Notes under the pieces: model-generated
The model's input: the letters and a program-made list of their open reading frames with translations, nothing else
Told to the model about the DNA's origin: nothing
The model's database searches: none
Position numbers and translations under genes: made by a program
Shown: positions 967 to 20,812 of the stretch, piece after piece
Numbering within the stretch: the first letter of the stretch is position 1
How the letters are laid out: every line of letters begins with the position of its first letter
Assembly: GCA_965197905.1 (NCBI GenBank)
Contig: CBDAOB010000004.1
Span: 1,824,001-1,888,000 of the forward strand
DNA: 64,000 bases
DNA from: Candidatus Latescibacterota bacterium
Lineage (GTDB): Bacteria > Latescibacterota > UBA2968 > UBA8231
Direction: 5' to 3'

Positions 967-2208
967 ATGGCGCGGGTCTTGGTAGTTGAGCGTAGCCCAA
1001 AGATCGGGAAGCTCGTAGCCGATCAGTTGCAGCAAAACGGCTTCGACGCCACGGATGTGCGCCATGGGGCGGAAGCCGCCCTCGAGCTTCGTCGGCAGGA
1101 GTGCGACCTCATCCTATTGGACAACCAGGTGCCGATGGGTGGGGTAAAAACCGCCCGCATTCTGCGCCTGCACCCAAAATTCAACACGATACCGATCATT
1201 CTGGGCTTACCCACCAACAAGGACGAAGCCCGCAAGGTAATTACCGACAGCAACGAAGTCGGGGTGAGCAATTTCCTGCTCAAGCCGTTCACCATGGCGG
1301 CCCTGAAAAAGAAGCTGGACGATGTGCTCGGCGACGAAACTCCGGCGGAGAAACCCACCTTCATGGAGATTCGTGACGAGCTGCGGAACCTCAGCAATCT
1401 GCCGGCGATGCCGGAAGCCCACAGCAAGCTGCTGGCCCTGCTCAGCAAGGCCGACGACGAAGTGGATATGAACGCCGTCGCCAAGACCCTAGAGATGGAT
1501 GCAGCGATGTCGGCCAAGGTCATGCGCACCTGCCGCTCGGCGTTCTTCGGATTTCAAGGCAGCATGATGAAACAAGCGGTGGCTTTTCTGGGGGTTGCGG
1601 TGATTCGTCAAATCGTGCAGTCGGCGGTTATCGTCAGCATGTTCGATGACGAGAAAGAGGGAGATTCCAGCCTGAGCATGCAAGACCTGTGGCGTCATTC
1701 CATGGCAACCGGTTTGGCTATGGAAGTGATCGGAAAAGCGGACAAGAAAAAAACCCACTTCCTTCTGGGTGTTCTGCACGATGTGGGAAAGGCGGTGTTC
1801 AAGTTTCGCTTCTCCGAGCATTTTGCCTCGGTTCTCGATCTCGTGGCGAAGGAAGAGATCTCTATGTACAAGGCGGAGCAGGAGCTCCTGGGCATCACCC
1901 ACGCCGAGTGCGGGGGGGAGTTGGCGGTGCACTGGGATCTTCCGGGTGAGGTGCGTACCGCTATAGCCGCACACCATACCCCCGCGGAGACAACGCAACA
2001 CAAGCGATTGGCCGCCATGGTCCATATCGCCGATATCGCCGTCCGCACCATGAAAATTGGCTACGCCGGCGATGATCTGATTCCGCCGATGGATCCATAT
2101 GCGGCCAGGCTGCAGAAGAGCGTCGAGGAGATCACCGCCCAGCGCGATCAGATCGTCGGTCAGATCGACGCCATGGTGGGCGGGTCAGACGGGGAGGCAG
2201 AGAATTAG
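967..2208 (+). CDS. Response-regulator receiver + HDOD domain signalling protein
   Basis: N-terminal REC (LILLDNQVP, FLLKPF); HDOD signature LPAMP...DAAMSAKVMR...LWRHS...LHDVGK...LLGITHAECG...HWDLP...IAAHH. Confidence 0.9.
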   Translation: MARVLVVERSPKIGKLVADQLQQNGFDATDVRHGAEAALELRRQECDLILLDNQVPMGGVKTARILRLHPKFNTIPIILGLPTNKDEARKVITDSNEVGVSNFLLKPFTMAALKKKLDDVLGDETPAEKPTFMEIRDELRNLSNLPAMPEAHSKLLALLSKADDEVDMNAVAKTLEMDAAMSAKVMRTCRSAFFGFQGSMMKQAVAFLGVAVIRQIVQSAVIVSMFDDEKEGDSSLSMQDLWRHSMATGLAMEVIGKADKKKTHFLLGVLHDVGKAVFKFRFSEHFASVLDLVAKEEISMYKAEQELLGITHAECGGELAVHWDLPGEVRTAIAAHHTPAETTQHKRLAAMVHIADIAVRTMKIGYAGDDLIPPMDPYAARLQKSVEEITAQRDQIVGQIDAMVGGSDGEAEN

Positions 2209-2848
2209 CCAGGCTTCTCCAAGCCTCACAGTCGATCTGCGAACCGGCTTACCGCACCACTGTGTAGGCCTTTTTTTGTGCCTCCTGTTACACACCGGGG
2301 TAGGGGCGCAGTACGAAGCCGAAGTCACAGCAGAGCGCCAGTCGAATTTCTACCTCTCCGCTGGCCTAGGCCTGCTCACCGTAGGCACTAAGGCAGGCAT
2401 TGCCATTCCGGCCGGATTCATGGCGGTGCTTTCCCCTTACCGGTTGCTGGTTTCCGCCAGCGCGATCGATATCGGGCTTCTGGAAGGAGACTCCAAGGAT
2501 CCGCGGTACGAGCGTTTATTCGTGCCGGGGGGCTCCCAAGCCTGCCTGGATCGAGAGACCGGTTTTCTTGTTTCGGATTTTCGTTGTTCTGGAGGGACCG
2601 TCCTCCGAGGCTCGACCGGTGCCGATCTCAGCGTCATACCCATAGAGAATCTTTGGCTCGGAAACCAACCGGGCAACCTGTTCACCGGTGTCGGCTTTCG
2701 TGCCTTCAACCCGAAGACGGCCTACGTCACCTTCGGCCTGGTGTTCAATTCGCAGACGGAAAAAGCAGGCGGATTCAAGGTCAATATCGGCAGCGACTAC
2801 GTGTTTGTCGGTATCCTCGGAGGGTTCAACCTACGCCGATGGTTCTGA
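2099..2848 (+). CDS. Hypothetical exported protein, possibly an outer-membrane beta-barrel; true start probably downstream of 2208
   Basis: Signal-peptide-like LFLCLLLHTGVGA|Q, alternating beta-strand-like segments, terminal aromatic (RRWF). Start codon unclear. Confidence 0.55.
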   Translation: MRPGCRRASRRSPPSAIRSSVRSTPWWAGQTGRQRISQASPSLTVDLRTGLPHHCVGLFLCLLLHTGVGAQYEAEVTAERQSNFYLSAGLGLLTVGTKAGIAIPAGFMAVLSPYRLLVSASAIDIGLLEGDSKDPRYERLFVPGGSQACLDRETGFLVSDFRCSGGTVLRGSTGADLSVIPIENLWLGNQPGNLFTGVGFRAFNPKTAYVTFGLVFNSQTEKAGGFKVNIGSDYVFVGILGGFNLRRWF

Positions 2849-2867
2849 ACGTGCCCTCGCCGTTGTG

Positions 2868-3927
2868 ATGGCGGGTCGCATCGCCTGCCGCCGGTACCGC
2901 TGCGCACGCAACATCGCCTTCGCCGCCTTGAGCCTGCTGTTCGCCGCAGACGGAAACAGCCAGACGCTTCCGCCGGAGACCCACCCCAGCCTGTTGTTTA
3001 CCGCCGCTGAGCTACCTCTACTAAAGAGCCGCATCGCGCGCGCTCCGTACTCGAGTTGGTGGCAAACGACGCTGCAACGCGCGCAAACCGTTCCCGATAC
3101 CGTAACCGTAGAGCGATCGAAGGCCCGTTACGCCAAGAGCCTGGCGTTTGCCTATCTCATGACCGACGACGAGAGCTTCGCACGGTTACGATATGTTGCA
3201 CGAGTTCGTGAGCGCGGATGCTGCCTCACTGGCCGCGGTGCGCGGTCTCCTCGCCGAGGAAGCGGCGCGGTTGATGAAGGGTATTGTCGTGCAGGAGATC
3301 AACCTCGGTTTCGTGACCATCAAGCTGCGTCTGCACGAGACGCCCCACATCGACAACTGGCATCTGCGGGCGTACGGTGGGCTGGGGTTTGCCGCCCTGG
3401 CACTGGCGGATCATCCCGGCGTCGACGACAAAACCCCCCAAGATTGGTCTGACCGGGCAGTGGATCTGTCCAGCCGCACCCTGGAGTATCAGATAGACCC
3501 CGTGGACGGCGGCTACGCCGAGGGTCCGTTCTACAGCCGCTACGCCGCCGATGTTTACCTGCCATACTTGATCGCCATGAAACGTCTCACCGGACTTGAT
3601 CTCATCGACGCGCCGATCGTGCGCAAGATGCACGACTGGTCGGTAAACATCCGCTTGCCCAATGGACGCCGACCAAACATCGACGACGGCCACCTGGACG
3701 AATTCTACGGTCATTACCTGGCCGCTGTCGACGACGACGGTCCGGTGCATCTTTGGGACTGGCAAAACAACGAGACCGGGCTGTACGTGCGGGAGTTTTC
3801 AGAGCTGGATGCTATTGCGCTCTACGACGACCGCATCGAACCCCAGGAGCCCACGCAAGGACCGACGATCTTCATGCCGGAGGCCGGAGATGCGGTCTTC
3901 CGCAACGACTGGTCGGCCGACGGGATC
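2868..3927 (+). pseudogene. Heparinase II/III-family polysaccharide lyase, 5' exon; also frameshifted at ~3180
   Basis: Signal peptide, then HPSLLFT (frame of ORF 2688). The frame switches at ~3180 to GYDMLHEF...DNWH...DGGYAEGPFYSRY...PNIDDG...GDAVFRNDWSADGI (frame of ORF 3193), ending exactly at the intron 5' end. Confidence 0.8.
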
Positions 3928-4511
3928 GTGCGCCACGAGGCGCCAGAGAACCGGGTGGGATGCAAGGACCCACCAACGGGCTGTCGCAGCAGCCCGTTGA
4001 AGCTGGAGGCAGCCTGACCCTGGGAGCGCAGGGGAAGGTGGAAGCAGCCTCGACAACGACAGAGTGGAGTGGCACCTCCAGACACTCCACGTCTGGCAAG
4101 CAAGACGGAATGGTGTAACCCGAAGTGAACCAGTGATGGAACCCCCTTTAGCGGCCCGCCAACCCAAACCTGGTGGATAAGGGTTGGTACGCAACGCACG
4201 TGGTCGGATATATGACCGACTGCGACTCTGGGGAGGTGTGATACCCACCGAAGCAGAGGCCTTGGAGAATGCCTGCGGCGTACCCAAGGCGAAGTTGCAG
4301 GGGAAAAGCTGGGCACCTCCCCCGTCAAACGGTTCATGGTGAACGTGGGAACCGAGCCGAGTCCGACCGTTATCGGGGCAGCGCGCTGTCCGCTGTGGGG
4401 CTTGGCAAGGGACGGAGCCTCTGTAGTAGTCCGCGAGCGGGAAAGCCGCTTACATGGCGAAGGGAGGCAGCAAGTTGCGCAGTGGGGTACTGGAAAAACA
4501 GGAGGACGCCG

Positions 4512-5942
4512 GTGAATGCCAGCGCTTCGTGGCCCGAGGCAGAACAAGCCCGTAATCGAGTACTGGAAATCCAGACCAAACTGCACCGTTGGGCTGTAGA
4601 GGATCGAAGCAAGTGCTTCGACGACCTGTTCAACCTGGTGTGTGACCCGGCGTTTTTGAGTGTAGCCTGGCGTCGGGTGCGCAGCAACAAGGGTGCTCGT
4701 TCGGCCGGAGTGGACGGACAAACGGCCTACTCTGTGGAGACGGAACGCGGCGAGGAGGCCTTTCTCGCCGAGGTGCGGGTTGATCTGAAGACCCGCAGTT
4801 TCCGGCCTCTGCCCGTACGCGAGCGGTTGATTCCGAAACCTGGCACAACGAAGAAGCGCCGGCTCGGCATCCCAACCGCTCGGGACCGAGTGGTCCAAGC
4901 CGCACTCAAGCTGGTGCTCGAACCGATCTTCGAAGCGGACTTCAAGCCGTGCTCCTACGGCTTCCGCCCGAATCGGCGGGCTCAGGACGCCATCGCCGAG
5001 ATTCATCAATTCTGCTCCCGCTCTTATGAGTGGGTGGTGGAGGGCGATATCCGTGCTTGTTTCGATGAGATTGATCACGCAGCCCTCTTGGACCGCGTGC
5101 GTCGACGTATCGGTGATAAGCATGTTCTGAGGCTTGTAAAAGCGTTCTGCAAGGCCGGTGTCCTCACGGAACAATCGGTGTTGCAAGAAAGCACTTCGGG
5201 CACTCCGCAAGGCGGTATTCTCTCACCGCTGGTGGCAAATATCGCCTTATCCGTCCTCGACGATTATTTCACTGAGGTCTGGAGAAAGGTGGGCGCTACC
5301 TCCAGTGCGCGACAAGCGCATCGGCGAAAGGGGCTACCGACTTGTCGGCTTGTCCGTTACGCTGACGATTTCGTGCTGCTGGTGGCGGGCACCGAAGCTG
5401 CAGCGTATGACCTGCGCGACCAAGCGGGGGTGACTCTCACCCCCATGGGTCTGCACCTGTCGGAGACGAAGACCGCCATCACGCACATCAGCCGTGGCTT
5501 CGATTTCCTGGGTTTTCGCATTCAGAAGCGACGGAAACCGGGCCCGGTTGGCGCACGCATCTATACGTGGCCAAGAAAGGAATCTCTGGCCCGGTTGAAG
5601 AGCACGGTGCGCGCAGTCACGAGAACGGGTCGGCAGAGGCCGTTGAAGAGCCTTCTGCGCCAACTCAATCCGGTGTTGCGGGGGTGGGCCAACTACTTTC
5701 AGTACGGGGTGTCGAAGGCCACTTTCAACTACGTGCGGGGCTTCACTTGGCGCCGCGTAGTGCATTGGCTGCGCCGCAAGCACCCGCGCTTTAATTGGAG
5801 GAAGCTGAAACGCCGCTACCTGCCAGGATGGTGGCCCACCGAGGACGGGATTGCTCTTTACAACGTCGGCGAAGTAGCAGTGACTCGTTACCGCTATCGA
5901 TCGGCGCGGATCCCTTCTCCCTGGCCTGCGACAACCGGATGA
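4512..5942 (+). CDS. ltrA: Group II intron reverse transcriptase/maturase, no C-terminal HNH endonuclease
   Basis: RT0 AWRRVRSNKGARSAGVDG, IPKPG..RRLGIPTARDRVVQ, SYGFRPNR, GDIRACFD, GTPQGGILSPL, RYADDF, GFDFLGF; maturase X LNPVLRGWANYF; AGGAGG RBS before GTG4512 (track ORF begins at 4269). Confidence 0.96.
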   Translation: MNASASWPEAEQARNRVLEIQTKLHRWAVEDRSKCFDDLFNLVCDPAFLSVAWRRVRSNKGARSAGVDGQTAYSVETERGEEAFLAEVRVDLKTRSFRPLPVRERLIPKPGTTKKRRLGIPTARDRVVQAALKLVLEPIFEADFKPCSYGFRPNRRAQDAIAEIHQFCSRSYEWVVEGDIRACFDEIDHAALLDRVRRRIGDKHVLRLVKAFCKAGVLTEQSVLQESTSGTPQGGILSPLVANIALSVLDDYFTEVWRKVGATSSARQAHRRKGLPTCRLVRYADDFVLLVAGTEAAAYDLRDQAGVTLTPMGLHLSETKTAITHISRGFDFLGFRIQKRRKPGPVGARIYTWPRKESLARLKSTVRAVTRTGRQRPLKSLLRQLNPVLRGWANYFQYGVSKATFNYVRGFTWRRVVHWLRRKHPRFNWRKLKRRYLPGWWPTEDGIALYNVGEVAVTRYRYRSARIPSPWPATTG

Positions 5943-5971
5943 GACTCTGCGGTCACACGGCACCTTGTGGA

Positions 5972-6068
5972 GAGCCGGATGCGTGGTAACGCGCACGTCC
6001 GGTTCGGAGGGCGGGCCGGAGAAACCCACATCACGCGTGTGGCGCAGGGCGCTCCGGTCCGACCCTAC
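5972..6068 (+). ncRNA. Group II intron catalytic domain V and branch-point domain VI
   Basis: DV GAGCCGGATGCGTGGTAACGCGCACGTCCGGTTC (AGC triad, GTAA tetraloop, AC bulge); DVI GGGCGGGCCGGAG(6009-6021) pairs with CTCCGGTCCG-A-CCC(6052-6065), leaving A6062 bulged 7 nt from the 3' splice site. Confidence 0.93.
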
Positions 6069-7448
6069 TACATGCTGCTGCGCGGCGAGCATGGTCTCAC
6101 CCGCAACCGGGGACTGGCGCACGAGCATGCCGACGAGACCAGCTTCATCATCTACGCTTTTGGAGAGATGCTGGCTGTGGATGCGGGGTATATCAACTTC
6201 ACCAACCACCACAAGGTCAATGCTGGTCGCAATCACAACGTCATCCTGGTGGACGGTGAAGGGCCGCCGCTGTTCGTGGATCCGTTGATCGGCGAGTCCA
6301 TCGGCGGCGGCAACAACGCGTTTATCGAGGAGTTTTTCAGCACCGAGCACCAGGACTACGCGGAAGTGCGCGCCCAGTACGGCGGCGTCGACCTGCGGCG
6401 GCGGGTGATGTTTCCCGGAAAACAGTATTTCATTCTGGCCGATGAGGTGCGCGATCTCGAGGTCCACCAGTACGAATGGCGTCTCCACGGAAACGGGGGT
6501 GGAGACACCGGTGCTGACTATTCCCGTGCCGGCCCCTTGGCGCGCTGGGTCCGACCCAAAGCACAACTGGTCGCCTTCGTCGTCCCCCAGGACGAACTCA
6601 CGTTGGCCGAAGCCGACACCGTCCATTCCTTCACGTTTAGCCAGGAGAAAACCCATACCTTTCTGCAGGCTCAGACCACCGGTAGCAACGTGGAGTTTCT
6701 ATCCGTATTGGTTCCCGGGGCAAGCGGAATGCCGATGCCCTCCTTCGATGTCGGCAGCGCAACCGGCGCCCAAGCTGTGCACATTGAAGGGGACGGATTC
6801 CGCGATCTGGCGTGGGTCGCCGAGCACGGCGCCGACTCCATTCTGGTCGAAGATCAAAGCGGCAGTGTCCGCACCGACGCCCGCTTTGGACAGCTCCGCT
6901 ACGAAGGCGATCTGTTGCGGTCTTACACGATTCAGGACGCCAGCTTTCTGCGCGTCGGGACGGAGGAGGTCTTCAGTGCCGCAGATACGGTCGATCTTTC
7001 CTTCAACTTCGACGAGGGTGGCCTACGGGGGTTTGTCGCGGCGGCGGACGGTGGGGTCGAGATCCTGATACCCGTGTCCGCTTCGGCGCTGGATTCGTTG
7101 CAATTCGACGGGACGCTGCTTGACAGTAGTCTCGCCGCGGGGCGACTGAGCCTGAGGATTGCCGGTGCAGGCCGTCTTGTGGTGCGTACCCAACCAACAC
7201 CAGCGGACACCGTCGGAGGAGAGTCAAGCGGTCAGACGGCGGCAGCGGAGGAGGCGGGCTCTGCTGCCGAACCGGGGGATTTCGACCACAGCGGTCTGGT
7301 CGACCTGGAGGACTTCAGCTTGTGCGCCCAGGCATACGACTCCAACGCAACGACAGCGACGGCGACTTTCGATCTGAACGACGACGGCAGGATAGATTTC
7401 GAGGATTTCTTCCTCTTTGCGGATCTCTTCCCGCAGTCCGCTCCGTAA
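6069..7448 (+). CDS. Heparinase II/III-family lyase, 3' exon, with C-terminal EF-hand/dockerin-like module
   Basis: YMLLRGEHG...HEHADETSFIIYAFGEMLAVDAGY...HNVILVDG...RRRVMF...YFILADEV...YEWRLH; C-terminus GDFDHSGLVDLEDF...FDLNDDGRIDFEDFFLFA. Confidence 0.85.
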   Translation, partial: YMLLRGEHGLTRNRGLAHEHADETSFIIYAFGEMLAVDAGYINFTNHHKVNAGRNHNVILVDGEGPPLFVDPLIGESIGGGNNAFIEEFFSTEHQDYAEVRAQYGGVDLRRRVMFPGKQYFILADEVRDLEVHQYEWRLHGNGGGDTGADYSRAGPLARWVRPKAQLVAFVVPQDELTLAEADTVHSFTFSQEKTHTFLQAQTTGSNVEFLSVLVPGASGMPMPSFDVGSATGAQAVHIEGDGFRDLAWVAEHGADSILVEDQSGSVRTDARFGQLRYEGDLLRSYTIQDASFLRVGTEEVFSAADTVDLSFNFDEGGLRGFVAAADGGVEILIPVSASALDSLQFDGTLLDSSLAAGRLSLRIAGAGRLVVRTQPTPADTVGGESSGQTAAAEEAGSAAEPGDFDHSGLVDLEDFSLCAQAYDSNATTATATFDLNDDGRIDFEDFFLFADLFPQSAP

Positions 7449-7473
7449 CAACAGCTTCCCGGCGGAGTGACTG

Positions 7474-7926
7474 CTACACCGCGGTCATCGCGTAGTTCAG
7501 AATCTCCACCACCTGCGCTGGCTCGGAAGCTACCGCCTGTGCGGCGGCGTCGACCTCCTTTAGCGGGTGCCGAAGGTCAGGCGGATGCAGCACAATCAGC
7601 GGCTTGTTCAGGGCGAAGGCGTATCCGGCATCGAAAGCGGCATTCCACTGCCGGTACTCTTCGCCAAATTTCACCACCACAACATCGCAATCGCGTATAA
7701 GCGTGCGCGTGCGAATGGCGTTGATCTTGCCCCCTTTGTGATCGGTCCAGAACGAATCCTCTTCGGGGCCGAGAATGTCGACACCGCAACCATCGCTGGC
7801 GCCATGGTCCATCACCGGCGCGAAGAACAGCACGTCGAGCTCTGCCTCCTCGGCGCCCTGAGTAATTTGCTGGCGCCAATCGCTGTGCACTTCGCCGGCC
7901 AGATAAACCTTCCATTGCTTTGACAT
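7474..7926 (-). CDS. YtoQ family protein (nucleoside 2-deoxyribosyltransferase-like fold)
   Basis: VYLAGEVHSDWR, INAIRTRTLI, FGEEYRQWNAAFDAGYA, HPLKEVDAAA. Confidence 0.88.
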   Translation of the reverse strand: MSKQWKVYLAGEVHSDWRQQITQGAEEAELDVLFFAPVMDHGASDGCGVDILGPEEDSFWTDHKGGKINAIRTRTLIRDCDVVVVKFGEEYRQWNAAFDAGYAFALNKPLIVLHPPDLRHPLKEVDAAAQAVASEPAQVVEILNYAMTAV

Positions 7927-17952: not shown

Positions 17953-18243
17953 TTGACCCCGACCATAAGTGTGCGCCACGACAAGGTTTCTGATGCCACT
18001 CGTGAGTACATCGAAAAGGCGTGCGAAAAGTTTGGTCAGTACTACGATCGGATCGTCGAATGCGACGTTGTAGTCGAAAAACAGAAGAAGGGAACGCAGG
18101 TGGAAATCGTTCTGAAGGTGCCGCAGCAAACCCTTACTGCTTCTTGTCTTGAGGAGAATCTCTACAAAGCTGTGGACGCCGCTAAGGAACGAATAGAAAC
18201 CCAGCTCAAGAAGTATCACGACAAGAACGTTGCCCACCGTTGA
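17953..18243 (+). CDS. raiA: Ribosome hibernation factor, short HPF/RaiA
   Basis: ISVRH...DATREYIEK...DVVVEK...NLYKAVDAAKERIETQLKKYHDK; AAGGAG RBS before TTG17953. Confidence 0.88.
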   Translation: MTPTISVRHDKVSDATREYIEKACEKFGQYYDRIVECDVVVEKQKKGTQVEIVLKVPQQTLTASCLEENLYKAVDAAKERIETQLKKYHDKNVAHR

Positions 18244-18262
18244 TCTGGGCGGGGGTATCTGC

Positions 18263-18295
18263 AACCGGTCTGGCCCTGGTCAGGCCGGTTTTCTT
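18263..18295 (+). terminator. Intrinsic terminator after raiA
   Basis: AACCGGTCTGGC...GTCAGGCCGGTT stem followed by TTCTT. Confidence 0.7.
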
Positions 18296-18310
18296 GTGTA
18301 CCACCTCTTC

Positions 18311-18339
18311 TTGACATGCCCAAACGGGCAACGTATGAT
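18311..18339 (+). promoter_or_regulatory. Near-consensus sigma70 promoter of the secretin gene with a palindrome in the spacer
   Basis: TTGACA - 17 bp - TATGAT; the spacer holds TGCCC-AAAC-GGGCA (18317-18330). Confidence 0.75.
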
Positions 18340-18376
18340 GGGAAAAACGCGGTCCCTGGGAAAGAAATTCGGAACT

Positions 18377-20812
18377 ATGAGATATCGGCGTCCTGCCCGT
18401 TTTCTGCTGTATTTCGCCCTGTTCTCTCTGCCCATCCAGGCGCAGGCGACCGTCGATTTCGTTGTCTCGCCGCTGTCGTCCCGTTCTAAGAACATCCGTT
18501 TGTTCGAAGCGGCAGATACGCGGGTGATGCTGCCAGCGGGATACGCCCGCGATCCGTCCGCGGCCGCTTCGATGGCACTCAGAGCGGGAACCGTCGACGC
18601 TCGCGTCTATACAAAACCGAACCTCGACGGCGGTGTGCTGTCGCTGGAGCTTGCCCTCGTGCGGGGCATTACGGCGGGATACGAATTCGCCCTGTTCAGC
18701 CCGGACGGTGAAACCGCGGCCGACGACGATCTGGCGGAGGTTGCCAGGCGCTTGAAGAGGCTTCGCAAGGCGAGCGCAAAGGTGTCGCGGGGCAAGCCCG
18801 AACTAGGCTACGAGATGGTCCGCCTGGGAAACATCGAAGCCGACCGCGCCCTGGCATTGCTCAAGTCCCTGGGCTACAGCACGGTGGAGTTCTCCAGCAA
18901 AAGCAAGACCCGCGAAAAGGTCTTCGATATCAAAGGCGACCGCGACGCCGACCTGCCTCGGGTGGTCAAGGTCATAAACGACTCCAAGACCAGCCTGTTG
19001 GAGGCCGATCCAAGCGGGTCCGCGCGCAAATCGACTACCAGCAAAAGCAAGGGCGTTCAAGGTGCTCCACAGCTGGGAGGTTCGCACCTGCACAGCACCA
19101 CCACCGGATCGCCGCAGGAACGTCTCCTAATCATTTACGACAGGAACGAGCTGGAGGCGCTGGAGAAGCTGATTAACGTATTGCGCACCCAGATCGATGT
19201 TCCGGCGCAGCAGATCGTCATCGAGGCGCTGGTCATCGAGGTGAATACCAACCGCTTGCGGGATGTGGGGGTCGAGTTGACCGGTTCGAAGAACCACGTA
19301 AAGGGGTCGTTCTCGCGTCCGGAAGGAACGACCGGCAACCCGCTTACCACGCTTCTGTTCTCGCGCGAGACCTTCACGGATTTCCTCTCGTTGAAGGGGA
19401 AGCTGGAGGCTCTCGTCGAGGTCGGTGATGCGGAGATCCTGTCCAGTCCTTCGGTGTTGGTGCTCAACGACCGTCAGGCCCGGGTGCAGGTGGGTAGGCA
19501 GATACCGATCGTGCGCTCGACGACCCCCACCGCCGGGACGACGGTCAAAGGCATTGAGTATTTCCCCATCGGCATCGTGCTTAACCTCCGACCTCGCATC
19601 AACCTGGACCAGAGTGAAGTGACGATTCAGATCGAGACCATTATCAGCTCCATCTCGACCGAATCCGCTACCAAGCTAGAAGACGGCATCTCGGAGGATA
19701 TCTCGTTTGCGCCCATTGTCGACAATCGAGTGGTCGAAACCTACATCAGAGTCGCGGACGGAACCCCGTTCATCATCGGCGGATTGCTGTCGACCGAACG
19801 CTTGGACAGCAAAGTGGGCGTGCCGTTTCTGTCGGCCGTGCCGTTTTTGGGCCATCTGTTTTCCCGCAAGCGGGTAGAGAACACCCAGCGGGAGGTTATC
19901 GTCGTCATCACGCCGCACATCGTTCCGCTGGAGGCGCGGAATTTTAGCTACCTCATCCCCAAGGATTCGGACATTTTCGACCGTTTCGACACGCGGCTTT
20001 TTCGCAACGCCTATCGCGTGCGCGACGACGACATCTGGGACCTGAAGTTTATCCGTCAAAGCCCAGCCCTCCAATCTCTGCTGACAAAGGTGCGCCGGAG
20101 TGCCGCAGACAACGTGATGTTGCAGCGCCAGGAACCCTTCAAGGGCTTGCTCGCGGGTGAGATTCCAGGGGAAGAGGTGCTGGTGCGCCGCATGCTGCGA
20201 GACATCGTGAAGAAGCTCGAATTCGGCCAGGAGATCGAGACCGAAAAGGTGTTCTTCTTCGAATCCTCGAACGCGGCAGGGGCCGAAGTCGATCTGGTCG
20301 ACCGCGGACTGGATGAGGTGGTGGCGCCGGTCCTGGAGGTGCCTGAGGGCGCGGTGCTGTTGACTTTCGGCGCCCAAGACGAACCCCGGTCGGGACAGTC
20401 CTTCAGCTACCCCTCGGCGGTGGTGCAGGATACCATCGTGCCCACCGACGAGAAGGAGTTGGTCGCGTTTCTGCGACAGCTGAATCCCCTCGACGACCAA
20501 GGGCGGCCGTTGCGATGGACCATCGTGCTGGCCAGCGCCGCCGACGTGGCGCAGCTCCAACGGGTGCTGGTTCTCAAACGGTTGCTCGAGCTCAACGGCA
20601 ATTTGCGTTTGAGTCTGCAGTCGTTCCATGCCGGGCTGCAGATTCTGTTTCCCACCCGCGAGGATATGCGCAACCGGTACCACCTGATCGACGGCGAGGT
20701 AGCGCAGCTTTTCTACGAGACCTCACCCAACCAATACTATCCTGCCTTTGAGCGAATCTTCAACCGCACCGCCCAGACCGCCGAAGACTACCTGCGATCG
20801 GCCCGACCATGA
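18377..20812 (+). CDS. Secretin-family (GspD/PilQ-like) outer-membrane protein with a long C-terminal extension
   Basis: IDVPAQQIVIEALVIEV, AEILSSPSVLVLNDRQARVQVG, GIVLNLRPRIN, VADGTPFIIGGL, GVPFLSAVPFLGHLF, REVIVVITPHIV; signal peptide from ATG18377. Confidence 0.9.
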   Translation: MRYRRPARFLLYFALFSLPIQAQATVDFVVSPLSSRSKNIRLFEAADTRVMLPAGYARDPSAAASMALRAGTVDARVYTKPNLDGGVLSLELALVRGITAGYEFALFSPDGETAADDDLAEVARRLKRLRKASAKVSRGKPELGYEMVRLGNIEADRALALLKSLGYSTVEFSSKSKTREKVFDIKGDRDADLPRVVKVINDSKTSLLEADPSGSARKSTTSKSKGVQGAPQLGGSHLHSTTTGSPQERLLIIYDRNELEALEKLINVLRTQIDVPAQQIVIEALVIEVNTNRLRDVGVELTGSKNHVKGSFSRPEGTTGNPLTTLLFSRETFTDFLSLKGKLEALVEVGDAEILSSPSVLVLNDRQARVQVGRQIPIVRSTTPTAGTTVKGIEYFPIGIVLNLRPRINLDQSEVTIQIETIISSISTESATKLEDGISEDISFAPIVDNRVVETYIRVADGTPFIIGGLLSTERLDSKVGVPFLSAVPFLGHLFSRKRVENTQREVIVVITPHIVPLEARNFSYLIPKDSDIFDRFDTRLFRNAYRVRDDDIWDLKFIRQSPALQSLLTKVRRSAADNVMLQRQEPFKGLLAGEIPGEEVLVRRMLRDIVKKLEFGQEIETEKVFFFESSNAAGAEVDLVDRGLDEVVAPVLEVPEGAVLLTFGAQDEPRSGQSFSYPSAVVQDTIVPTDEKELVAFLRQLNPLDDQGRPLRWTIVLASAADVAQLQRVLVLKRLLELNGNLRLSLQSFHAGLQILFPTREDMRNRYHLIDGEVAQLFYETSPNQYYPAFERIFNRTAQTAEDYLRSARP

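Follow-up and report, generated by a model that had tools for sequence, protein, structure and literature searches.

The window analysed here, a 64-kb stretch of Candidatus Latescibacterota DNA, carries a polysaccharide-lyase-like gene interrupted by a group II intron, with all features given below by window position located on the forward strand. The 5' exon comprises two parts separated by a deletion scar. Part A (2868..3183) begins with ATG 2868, encodes a hydrophobic leader that may represent a signal peptide, and spans the first ~105 codons; at the DNA level it is 87% identical to an ortholog (L038) of the same genus that is intact, and at the amino acid level 68% identical to a paralog on C5 whose frame is open across the catalytic region. 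At the scar (3184..3186), 3 nt replace 104 nt of the ortholog, which results in a net loss of 101 nt and a frameshift 740 nt upstream of the intron. The deleted stretch carries the FPPRxGDLGxPHxEGE motif, and its loss takes out 15 columns invariant in 14/14 full-length homologs. Because of this deletion, the frame of ATG 2868 differs from that of the exon junction ((3927-2868+1) mod 3 = 1), and reading from the natural start yields 194 amino acids (2868..3452), terminated by TGA 3450-3452 upstream of the intron.

The remainder of the 5' exon, part B (3187..3927), encodes the predicted neutraliser N-W (motif 3352-3363), the predicted E-x3-Y acid (3520-3534), and a conserved Asp (motif 3676-3693), with roles predicted from PMC12915356. 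The 3' exon (6069..7448) encodes the predicted catalytic base H-x-H (motif 6117-6134), the Hepar_II_III_C domain, and a C-terminal dockerin/EF-hand-like motif scoring below the Pfam cut-off. All predicted catalytic residues are retained, divided between the two exons. No compensating frameshift occurs between 3186 and 3927, and ATG 3193, considered as a rescue start, has no leader, no conserved motif, and no visible ribosome-binding site. A promoter and terminator scan of positions 1900-7700 gave no excess over shuffles (1 vs 1.4 and 4 vs 4.8). As judged from its sequence, the lyase gene is likely a pseudogene whose full enzyme would not be restored by splicing, and lyase function appears to have been lost.

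Identity of the interrupted lyase

The sequence-only reading had assigned the gene to heparinases II/III, an identity that was not borne out. In a PDB search, the nearest solved structure was Dp0100, an alginate lyase of PL39 (PDB 6JP4/6JPH/6JPN; E 4e-57, 197 bits), compared with E 5.5e-9 and 38 bits for heparinase III, and the HepB model gave 13.7 bits against a cut-off of 600. The host protein matches Pfam Hepar_II_III_C, and it is best described by sequence comparison as a PL39/PL40-like lyase, being a heparinase only by the name of that Pfam domain. The Tyr acid, the His base, and the metal tetrad (D + H-x-H) can be aligned and are invariant in 14/14 homologs, with residue roles of PL39-type lyases taken from PMC13709232 and PMC12915356. 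The PL39 neutraliser motif P-R-P-H-N-H, as given in PMC10056287, is absent from the host family, which has N-W-H instead; in its N-W the present lyase resembles PL40 rather than PL39. It also shares with Dp0100 and the PL40 ulvan lyase Uly1040 the order N, E-x3-Y, D, H-x-H, Y, with distances between these residues similar to those in Uly1040 (PMC12915356). No PL40 chain is present among the nine PDB matches to the host protein. Lyases of PL39 and PL40 are characterised by a toroid and beta-sandwich fold and by action on alginate or ulvan. Unlike Dp0100 and Uly1040, the present allele is frameshifted.

Structure of the intron

The intron (3928..6068) starts with GTGCG at 3928, directly after the 5' exon end at 3927, and ends with AC at 6068, thus showing GUGYG 5' and AY 3' ends; its length of 2141 nt (mod 3 = 2) and the presence of stop codons in all three frames (18, 18, and 5) agree with the sequence-only reading in every detail. 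Both boundaries recur in 11/11 full-length copies, the flanks of which differ. RF00029, the sole Rfam match across the window, covers 5970-6068 over the entire model with 57.3 bits (gathering score 40) and terminates on the 3' boundary that had been claimed. Domain V (5972..6005; 34 nt, AGC triad) is supported by RF00029 and by folding, and domain VI (6008..6068), which carries the AC 3' end and, at 6062 (position -7), a bulged A, by folding. The RT/maturase ORF (4512..5942) has a GTG start behind AGGAGG and encodes 476 amino acids with an intact YADD; it matches TIGR04416 with 371 bits (cut-off 300) as well as RVT_1 and GIIM, and terminates ~40 amino acids beyond GIIM. Searches of Pfam and NCBIfam at E 0.1 found no endonuclease domain in it, HNH included. 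This is a complete group II intron with an intact RT/maturase and no endonuclease, as the earlier claim of an intact intron had held. The intron presumably splices; in one RNA run (X19), the lyase exons had no cover.

EBS2 (4152..4158) was predicted from covariation with the exon sequence in equivalent columns of 52 introns, kinship being ignored (mean 5.14 pairs vs 4.38 ± 0.09, reached in 0/300 shuffles). EBS1 (4240..4245), predicted by folding in a hairpin loop with delta at 4239, covaried likewise (4.87 vs 4.01 ± 0.10, 0/300 shuffles, the same 52 introns, kinship again ignored). At the lyase site, IBS2 (3913..3919; -15..-9) forms five Watson-Crick pairs and one G-U pair with EBS2, and IBS1 (3922..3927) forms 5/6 pairs with EBS1, the lone mismatch falling on the wobble position of a Gly codon. 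Both IBS1 and IBS3 are the same as those of the home site of the intron in an IS256 transposase gene.

Homologs and intron-free alleles

The junction is in phase 0, and 15/15 examined intron-less homologs, together with the same-genus ortholog, cross the DGI/YML position (slash, insertion point) without a gap; 15/15 other homologs have no DGI motif. The continuous join had been taken to mean that splicing rebuilds the catalytic domain; the in-frame junction and the division of residues over both exons stand, whereas a working enzyme is not supported, with the natural start cut off by the deletion. Since precise sense-strand insertion always rejoins in frame, such a join is no evidence on function.

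The genus comprises only three genomes, and the closest comparison is with a single one (G002), in which the lyase ortholog is intact and intron-free, with only 2 + 1 EBS2 pairs. Over 652 codons, the lyase differs from it by 132 synonymous and 46 non-synonymous codons, which indicates that the loss of the lyase is recent. Three neighbouring genes show no frameshift relative to G002. In the other genome (G001, 89% complete), no ortholog closer than the paralog was found, and a metagenome contig collection contained 0 matches to a 35-nt pattern taken out of the 5' exon.

Of 23 public sequencing runs, four were examined by contigs, and the statements below apply to the contig pieces listed. X1 and X2, which we take to be DNA runs because their contigs reach 80 kb, the cover extends past the gene, and the skipping contig differs from the window, each contain one contig that skips exactly 2141 nt; intron-less alleles, raised by the earlier reading, are thus present. 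A contig of X1 spans 3145-3300 gap-free and without mismatches, reproducing the deletion with 39 matched letters to one side of it and more than 100 to the other. Among the contigs listed for X1, the intron-free form is the only junction, and the deleted allele is present. A second X1 contig (depth 5.4) breaks at the deletion and may represent an undeleted allele; as the unitigs do not phase 3185 with 3927, a haplotype with the intron and without the deletion may therefore also exist.

Such a haplotype bears on the proposal that splicing yields a working lyase, with the intron tolerated or regulatory and the deletion either introduced by the assembly or confined to a minor allele. The in-frame junction, the predicted catalytic residues kept on both exons, the identity of IBS1 and IBS3 with the home site, and the possible undeleted X1 allele are in its favour. 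We nevertheless consider it very improbable, given that an X1 contig repeats the deletion exactly, that the three neighbouring genes are unshifted relative to G002, and that neither the ortholog nor any of 15/15 homologs nor the X1 and X2 alleles contain the intron.

Intron copies and the IS256 home target

The genome contains 11 full-length intron copies, 99.8-100% identical, and one 450-nt fragment; the full-length copies represent 9-11 loci, since two pairs overlap at contig ends. An IS256 5' exon precedes 7/12 copies, with PF00872 on both exon halves and the home motif W-A-D-G-I/Y in the transposase. IS256 elements encode a Mutator-type DDE transposase and have terminal inverted repeats and a target duplication of 8-9 bp. 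Here, matching termini and 8-bp target duplications were found at three copies, each intron-loaded IS256 with its own duplication, and no full-length host IS256 copy in the genome lacks the intron, which lies directly after the first catalytic Asp. In G002, all examined ones of seven intron copies or derivatives lie in IS256-type motifs; four IS256 copies each carry an identical 796-nt ORF-less derivative, and the RT copies are damaged.

The lyase site is identical to the 18-nt IS256 home target at 17/18 positions. Searching both strands with introns removed yielded ten sites with at most two mismatches, nine of IS256 type and the lyase; apart from the lyase, no non-IS site in the genome came that close. 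EBS2 forms 6 + 1 pairs with the IS256 home site, 5 + 1 with the lyase site, and 2 + 1 with the empty ortholog. Four other non-IS insertions have at least three mismatches to the home target, and an IS256-type site with one mismatch (C4:10369) is empty; similarity to the home site only partly predicts insertions. Two other copies lie in other chromosomal genes, one of them antisense. An 829-aa membrane-protein gene with another intron copy has a +2 frameshift downstream.

Because the intron-bearing lyase junction is not among the contig pieces listed for the four runs, it rests on the present assembly, in which the surroundings of two other copies, located at contig ends, are duplicated; an intron copy could thus have been misplaced here by mis-assembly of a multicopy repeat. 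We rate this as extremely unlikely: the joins at both ends are precise and the site pairs well with the EBS, only 3 nt of the 3' junction are in common with the IS256 flanks, and the same precision is seen for two other non-IS copies when compared with contiguous empty sites in G002.

Origin of the insertion

In our view, this g1, endonuclease-lacking intron mainly targets an IS256 transposase gene, and one copy very probably reached, by retrotransposition, a similar site in a lyase that the 101-nt deletion had likely inactivated beforehand. The event is likely a recent ectopic retrotransposition and an ordinary off-target jump. That chromosomal CAZyme genes are less usual hosts, as the sequence-only reading had remarked, is true in general; here, the insertion is explained by a site that mimics the IS256 home target.

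We infer both the mobility pathway and the order of deletion followed by intron. As suggested by the 9-11 near-identical copies, the intron would leave IS256 transcripts by splicing as an RNA-protein particle, in which EBS2 and EBS1 would pair with DNA coding for W-A-D-G-I directly before Y. The intron would reverse-splice at the paired DNA and be copied by its own RT with the nascent DNA strand as primer, a mode of priming described as established for endonuclease-lacking introns in PMC2504315. Within the genus, the lyase would have drifted to S-A-D-G-I/Y, with codons matching the IS256 target at 17/18. Even with transcription and splicing of the locus, reading from ATG 2868 would end at 3450, and the only possible product would be a leaderless protein of 704 amino acids from ATG 3193, without the conserved motif.

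The order could have been reversed, with the intron arriving first, lyase expression lowered or abolished, and the deletion arising as later decay; the insertion would still be off-target and the order alone would differ. Inhibition of the host gene by a group II intron is described in PMC6003770, and the frameshift in the membrane-protein gene is compatible with decay both before and after the insertion. This order seems improbable to us, however, since X1 has the deleted allele with the intron-free form as the only junction among those listed, so that intron loss would have to be precise or recombination invoked, and since the copy in the window shows 100% identity to the majority of the others and is hence very young.

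If the intron indeed entered an already deleted lyase by off-target retrotransposition, the locus is a natural case of target mimicry, in which S-A-D-G-I/Y codons match those of IS256 W-A-D-G-I/Y and the empty, intact ortholog serves as a control. A caution for annotation also follows: the whole gene should be checked, as an in-frame exon join alone proves no spliced working gene, and a splicing-dependent carbohydrate enzyme is not demonstrated by the present case.

A broader and rather doubtful possibility is that, jointly, IS256 and the intron constitute a splicing-dependent composite transposon, g1 introns are retargeting specialists, and the lyase copy is a by-product. Spliced mRNA would then be the sole source of transposase, and each jump would carry the intron with it; the EBS of g1 introns would have moved from one transposase catalytic motif to the next (IS256, IS3/IS481, IS30, ISL3, IS110, IS630 antisense, and tyrosine recombinase). 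By tying transposase expression to splicing, this would outweigh the lyase case. The literature searched, which covered few subscription papers, gave no match for group II intron retrohoming into IS256 or for g1 transposase target sites; no listed title concerned a group II intron inserted in an IS256 transposase, and for an interrupted polysaccharide lyase only an engineered knockout study was found.

Relatives of the intron

The RT/maturase clusters with 3/3 named g1 ORFs (Rh.js.I1, the R. opacus g1 fragment, and Sr.me.I2; support 100/97), outside of which fall g2, g3, and one unclassified reference ORF, in a tree with no named references for classes C, D, E, and g4 and with Sr.me.I2 on a long branch. 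It is 52% identical to the Rh.js.I1 ORF. RmInt1 of Sinorhizobium meliloti is a class D intron with its home in ISRm2011-2, an IS-dwelling element that also inserts ectopically. Like the present intron, it lacks an endonuclease and reaches a high copy number (PMC4615759); it differs in ORF class and IS family, the two being compared by description. The g1 introns Rh.js.I1, Ca.ac.I1, and Sr.me.I2 (Toro and Martinez-Abarca, 2013, PMC3552965) likewise have RT-X without endonuclease, YADD, an IEP of about 475 amino acids, and a length of 2.1-2.2 kb, while the present intron differs in its host (likely Ca. Latescibacterota vs Actinobacteria), in EBS1/EBS2 set to IS256 W-A-D-G-I, and in its high copy number. 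According to Mohr et al. (2010, PMC2882425), Thermosynechococcus elongatus TeI3/TeI4 share genomic proliferation, IS preference, and ORF-less derivatives mobilised in trans, and TeI3j, located within a glycosyl transferase gene, is a precedent for a carbohydrate-enzyme host; they belong to another lineage, and their EBS are split into six families, compared with one common set here.

Among 80 related loci, 23 were dropped as no boundary pair was found. Of the 57 retained, 45 had a transposase or integrase Pfam match in or beside the flanks, hosts being assigned by Pfam scans because the longest open frame is unreliable in GC-rich DNA; three more shared the junction of such an intron, and the remaining nine, left unassigned, included three at contig ends. 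GC skew was irregular.

Intron structure, boundaries and family

The group II intron at 3928-6068 (forward strand) is real, intact, and probably active, belongs to the g1 family, and sits off target in a lyase-like gene that carries a frameshift. The coordinates proposed in the sequence-only reading were correct: the element comprises 2141 nt with stop codons in all three frames, and the complete RF00029 model aligns to 5970-6068 (57.3 bits), ending exactly at the last intron base. In the folded 3' end, domain V spans 34 nt and domain VI carries its bulged A at -7. The RT/maturase ORF (4512-5942, forward strand; 476 aa) matches TIGR04416 (371 bits, cut-off 300), RVT_1, and GIIM, and a domain search of this ORF found no endonuclease family. 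In a 29-row tree, the intron-encoded protein clusters with three g1 references (support 100/97), apart from the g2 and g3 references, with labels as given in Table S2 of PMC3552965. The exon junction, DGI|YML, is in phase 0, and the exons align across it without a gap, as had been expected, with the intron-less ortholog from a second genome of the genus (G002) and with 13 further full-length homologs; the junction region is continuous in 15/15 homolog loci examined.

The interrupted lyase gene

The gene had been labeled a heparinase; among solved structures, its family is instead nearest to Dp0100, a PL39 alginate lyase (E 4e-57), with heparinase III at 5.5e-9. According to the accessible text of PMC12915356, the invariant residues of the host family (N-W, E-x3-Y, D, H-x-H, Y) match the catalytic set of PL40 Uly1040; they also match that of Dp0100, except that N-W here corresponds to N-H in Dp0100 (accessible parts of PMC12915356, PMC13709232, PMC10056287). 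The intron lies between the predicted catalytic acid and base, leaving the catalytic residues divided over two exons. A C-terminal Dockerin/EF-hand-like motif (7270-7445) scores below Pfam cut-offs.

The proposal that splicing restores the lyase in frame holds at the junction, where the phase-0 exons would bring together the separated catalytic residues, but not for the gene as a whole, since the frame from ATG 2868 differs from that of the junction. In the 5' exon (87-91% DNA identity to the G002 ortholog), the 3 nt at window positions 3184-3186 stand against 104 nt in G002, a net loss of 101 nt that shifts the frame, so that translation from ATG 2868 ends after 194 aa at TGA 3450, 475 nt upstream of the intron. 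The deleted stretch covers 15 columns invariant in 14/14 full-length homologs. The same deletion is found outside this assembly: a contig from the public sequencing run X1 matches 3145-3300 with zero differences and zero gaps. Three neighboring genes show zero frameshifts relative to G002, and codon differences within the lyase are mostly synonymous (132 versus 46 non-synonymous, 652 codons), an excess from which we infer that the gene was probably under selection until recently. A paralog on contig C5 of the window's genome (G000) keeps an open frame across the whole catalytic region; this copy (L001:3666-6161) follows its homolog from a third genome, G001, to about residue 750, and then its C-terminal tail diverges, without a C-terminal sorting-like domain. 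The G002 copy of the paralog is split near residue 506.

IS256 home of the intron

G000 carries 11 full-length intron copies (99.8-100% identical) and one 450-nt 5' fragment; two copy pairs fall in overlapping contig ends, and therefore 9-11 loci are counted. The duplicated ends around intron copies (C3:1-5574 and C4:329886-335462; the last 3.5 kb of C5 and C2:1-3519) are 99.7-99.8% identical. The same 5' exon, that of an IS256-family transposase, precedes 7/12 copies; PF00872 matches both halves of the split transposase, and the home motif W-A-D-G-I|Y lies at profile position 166-181, its Asp presumably being the first catalytic Asp. Every full-length copy of the 1377-bp IS256 contains the intron (C5:985907, C4:587965, C3:276941, C3:314676, C5:2674079/C2:439), and no intact intron-free copy was found in the G000 assembly (genome 91% complete). 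Three intron-bearing copies have their own 8-bp target duplications; the mismatched flanks of C3:314676 and C5:2674079/C2:439 suggest recombination between copies. At C4:335411, an IS256 left half is joined to a non-IS 3' flank, either an assembly artefact or a rearrangement. G002 has seven copies or derivatives of the intron, all examined ones behind IS256-type motifs. Four of its IS256 copies (L042-L045) each contain a near-identical 796-nt ORF-less intron (intron positions 672-2016 deleted); two of these four have 8-bp duplications, and the flanks of the other two are swapped. The RT-bearing copies of G002 show internal deletions or truncations. It is conceivable, if rather doubtful, that the IS256 is a splicing-dependent composite transposon whose transposase is made from spliced mRNA only, because homing of the intron into each IS256 copy after transposition explains the data equally well.

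Of 80 related loci, 57 had both boundaries found; 37 of these show a transposase or integrase Pfam match in sense with phase-0 flanks, seven show antisense IS630-type matches, one has an adjacent transposase match, and three others have the same junction as one of the IS630 cases. Targets among these loci (L048-L127) are conserved motifs of IS256, IS3/IS481 rve, IS30, ISL3, IS110, IS630 (antisense), and a tyrosine recombinase; almost every insertion is in phase 0, and EBS1/EBS2 covary with the target. RF00029 gave 28 matches in G000 (C1-C5). Besides the 11 copies, there are 12 matches of 113 nt with equal scores, slightly below the cut-off, and several others, which indicate that other intron families have also spread here.

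Target match at the lyase site

When both strands of G000 were scanned, with full intron copies removed in silico, ten sites differed from the 18-nt home target at no more than two positions: nine were IS256-type sites, and the tenth, with one mismatch, was the lyase site. The predicted EBS2 (4152-4158) and EBS1 (4240-4245), both on the forward strand, are supported by covariation with the exons over 52 related introns, which for each element exceeds all 300 shuffles; the shuffles ignore relatedness. Predicted pairing is 6 + 1 of 7 (EBS2) and 5/6 (EBS1) at the home site, 5 + 1 and 5/6 at the lyase site, and 2 + 1 and 5/6 at the empty G002 ortholog site. None of the 15 other homologs examined encodes D-G-I at the junction. 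EBS2 as the discriminating element would fit the homing role suggested for classes E and F, where splicing in vitro does not require EBS2-IBS2 (accessible text of PMC3753933). Target likeness alone is nevertheless too simple a picture, as four other, occupied non-IS sites fit the home target less well than the lyase site and one good IS256-type site in G000 is empty.

Alleles in public sequencing runs

Four of 23 public runs were compared with the window, using contigs that drop rare variants and cannot phase the deletion with the junction. The intron-less alleles that had been sought were present: one contig each from X1 and X2, which we infer to be DNA runs, skips exactly 2141 nt at the lyase site, the X1 contig (1650 nt) reading across the junction and showing three differences from the window sequence. 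As X1 contains both the deleted allele (3184-3186) and this intron-free junction, the deletion appears to be older than the intron insertion; a second X1 contig breaks at 3185-3187 and may be the undeleted allele. In the RNA run X19, the intron is covered, continuing into the IS256 3' exon, and the lyase exons are without cover. X19 also shows the ORF-less form (joint 4598-5944), and the joint seen in G002 is present in X5 as well as X19.

Insertions in other cellular genes

A further G000 copy (L003:2920-5060; C5:1334419) lies in sense orientation within the gene for an 829-aa PTPS_related membrane protein, in which a +2 frameshift follows some 930 nt further downstream. Another (L004:2959-5099; C3:569458) lies antisense at codon 45/46 of an otherwise open BNR-repeat gene, with a perfect EBS1 match and weak EBS2; being antisense, it leaves this gene beyond rescue by splicing. 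In G002, each of these two sites is uninterrupted and empty. The lyase and membrane-protein genes hint that the insertions which last are mostly those in damaged genes.

Insertion into a chromosomal gene had been described as less usual, which agrees with the accessible text of PMC4424553 and PMC6003770: in bacteria, most group II introns are located close to mobile DNA rather than in housekeeping genes. Precedents nevertheless exist, again from the accessible text: in the B. cereus group such introns occupy a wide range of chromosomal genes (PMC2504315), and in T. elongatus TeI3j interrupts a gene for a glycosyl transferase and ORF-less copies are mobilized in trans (PMC2882425). Our literature searches turned up no study of g1 targeting, nor any of a polysaccharide lyase gene naturally interrupted by an intron; subscription papers or supplements may hold one. 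Elsewhere in the window, a secretin-like ORF occupies 18230-20812.
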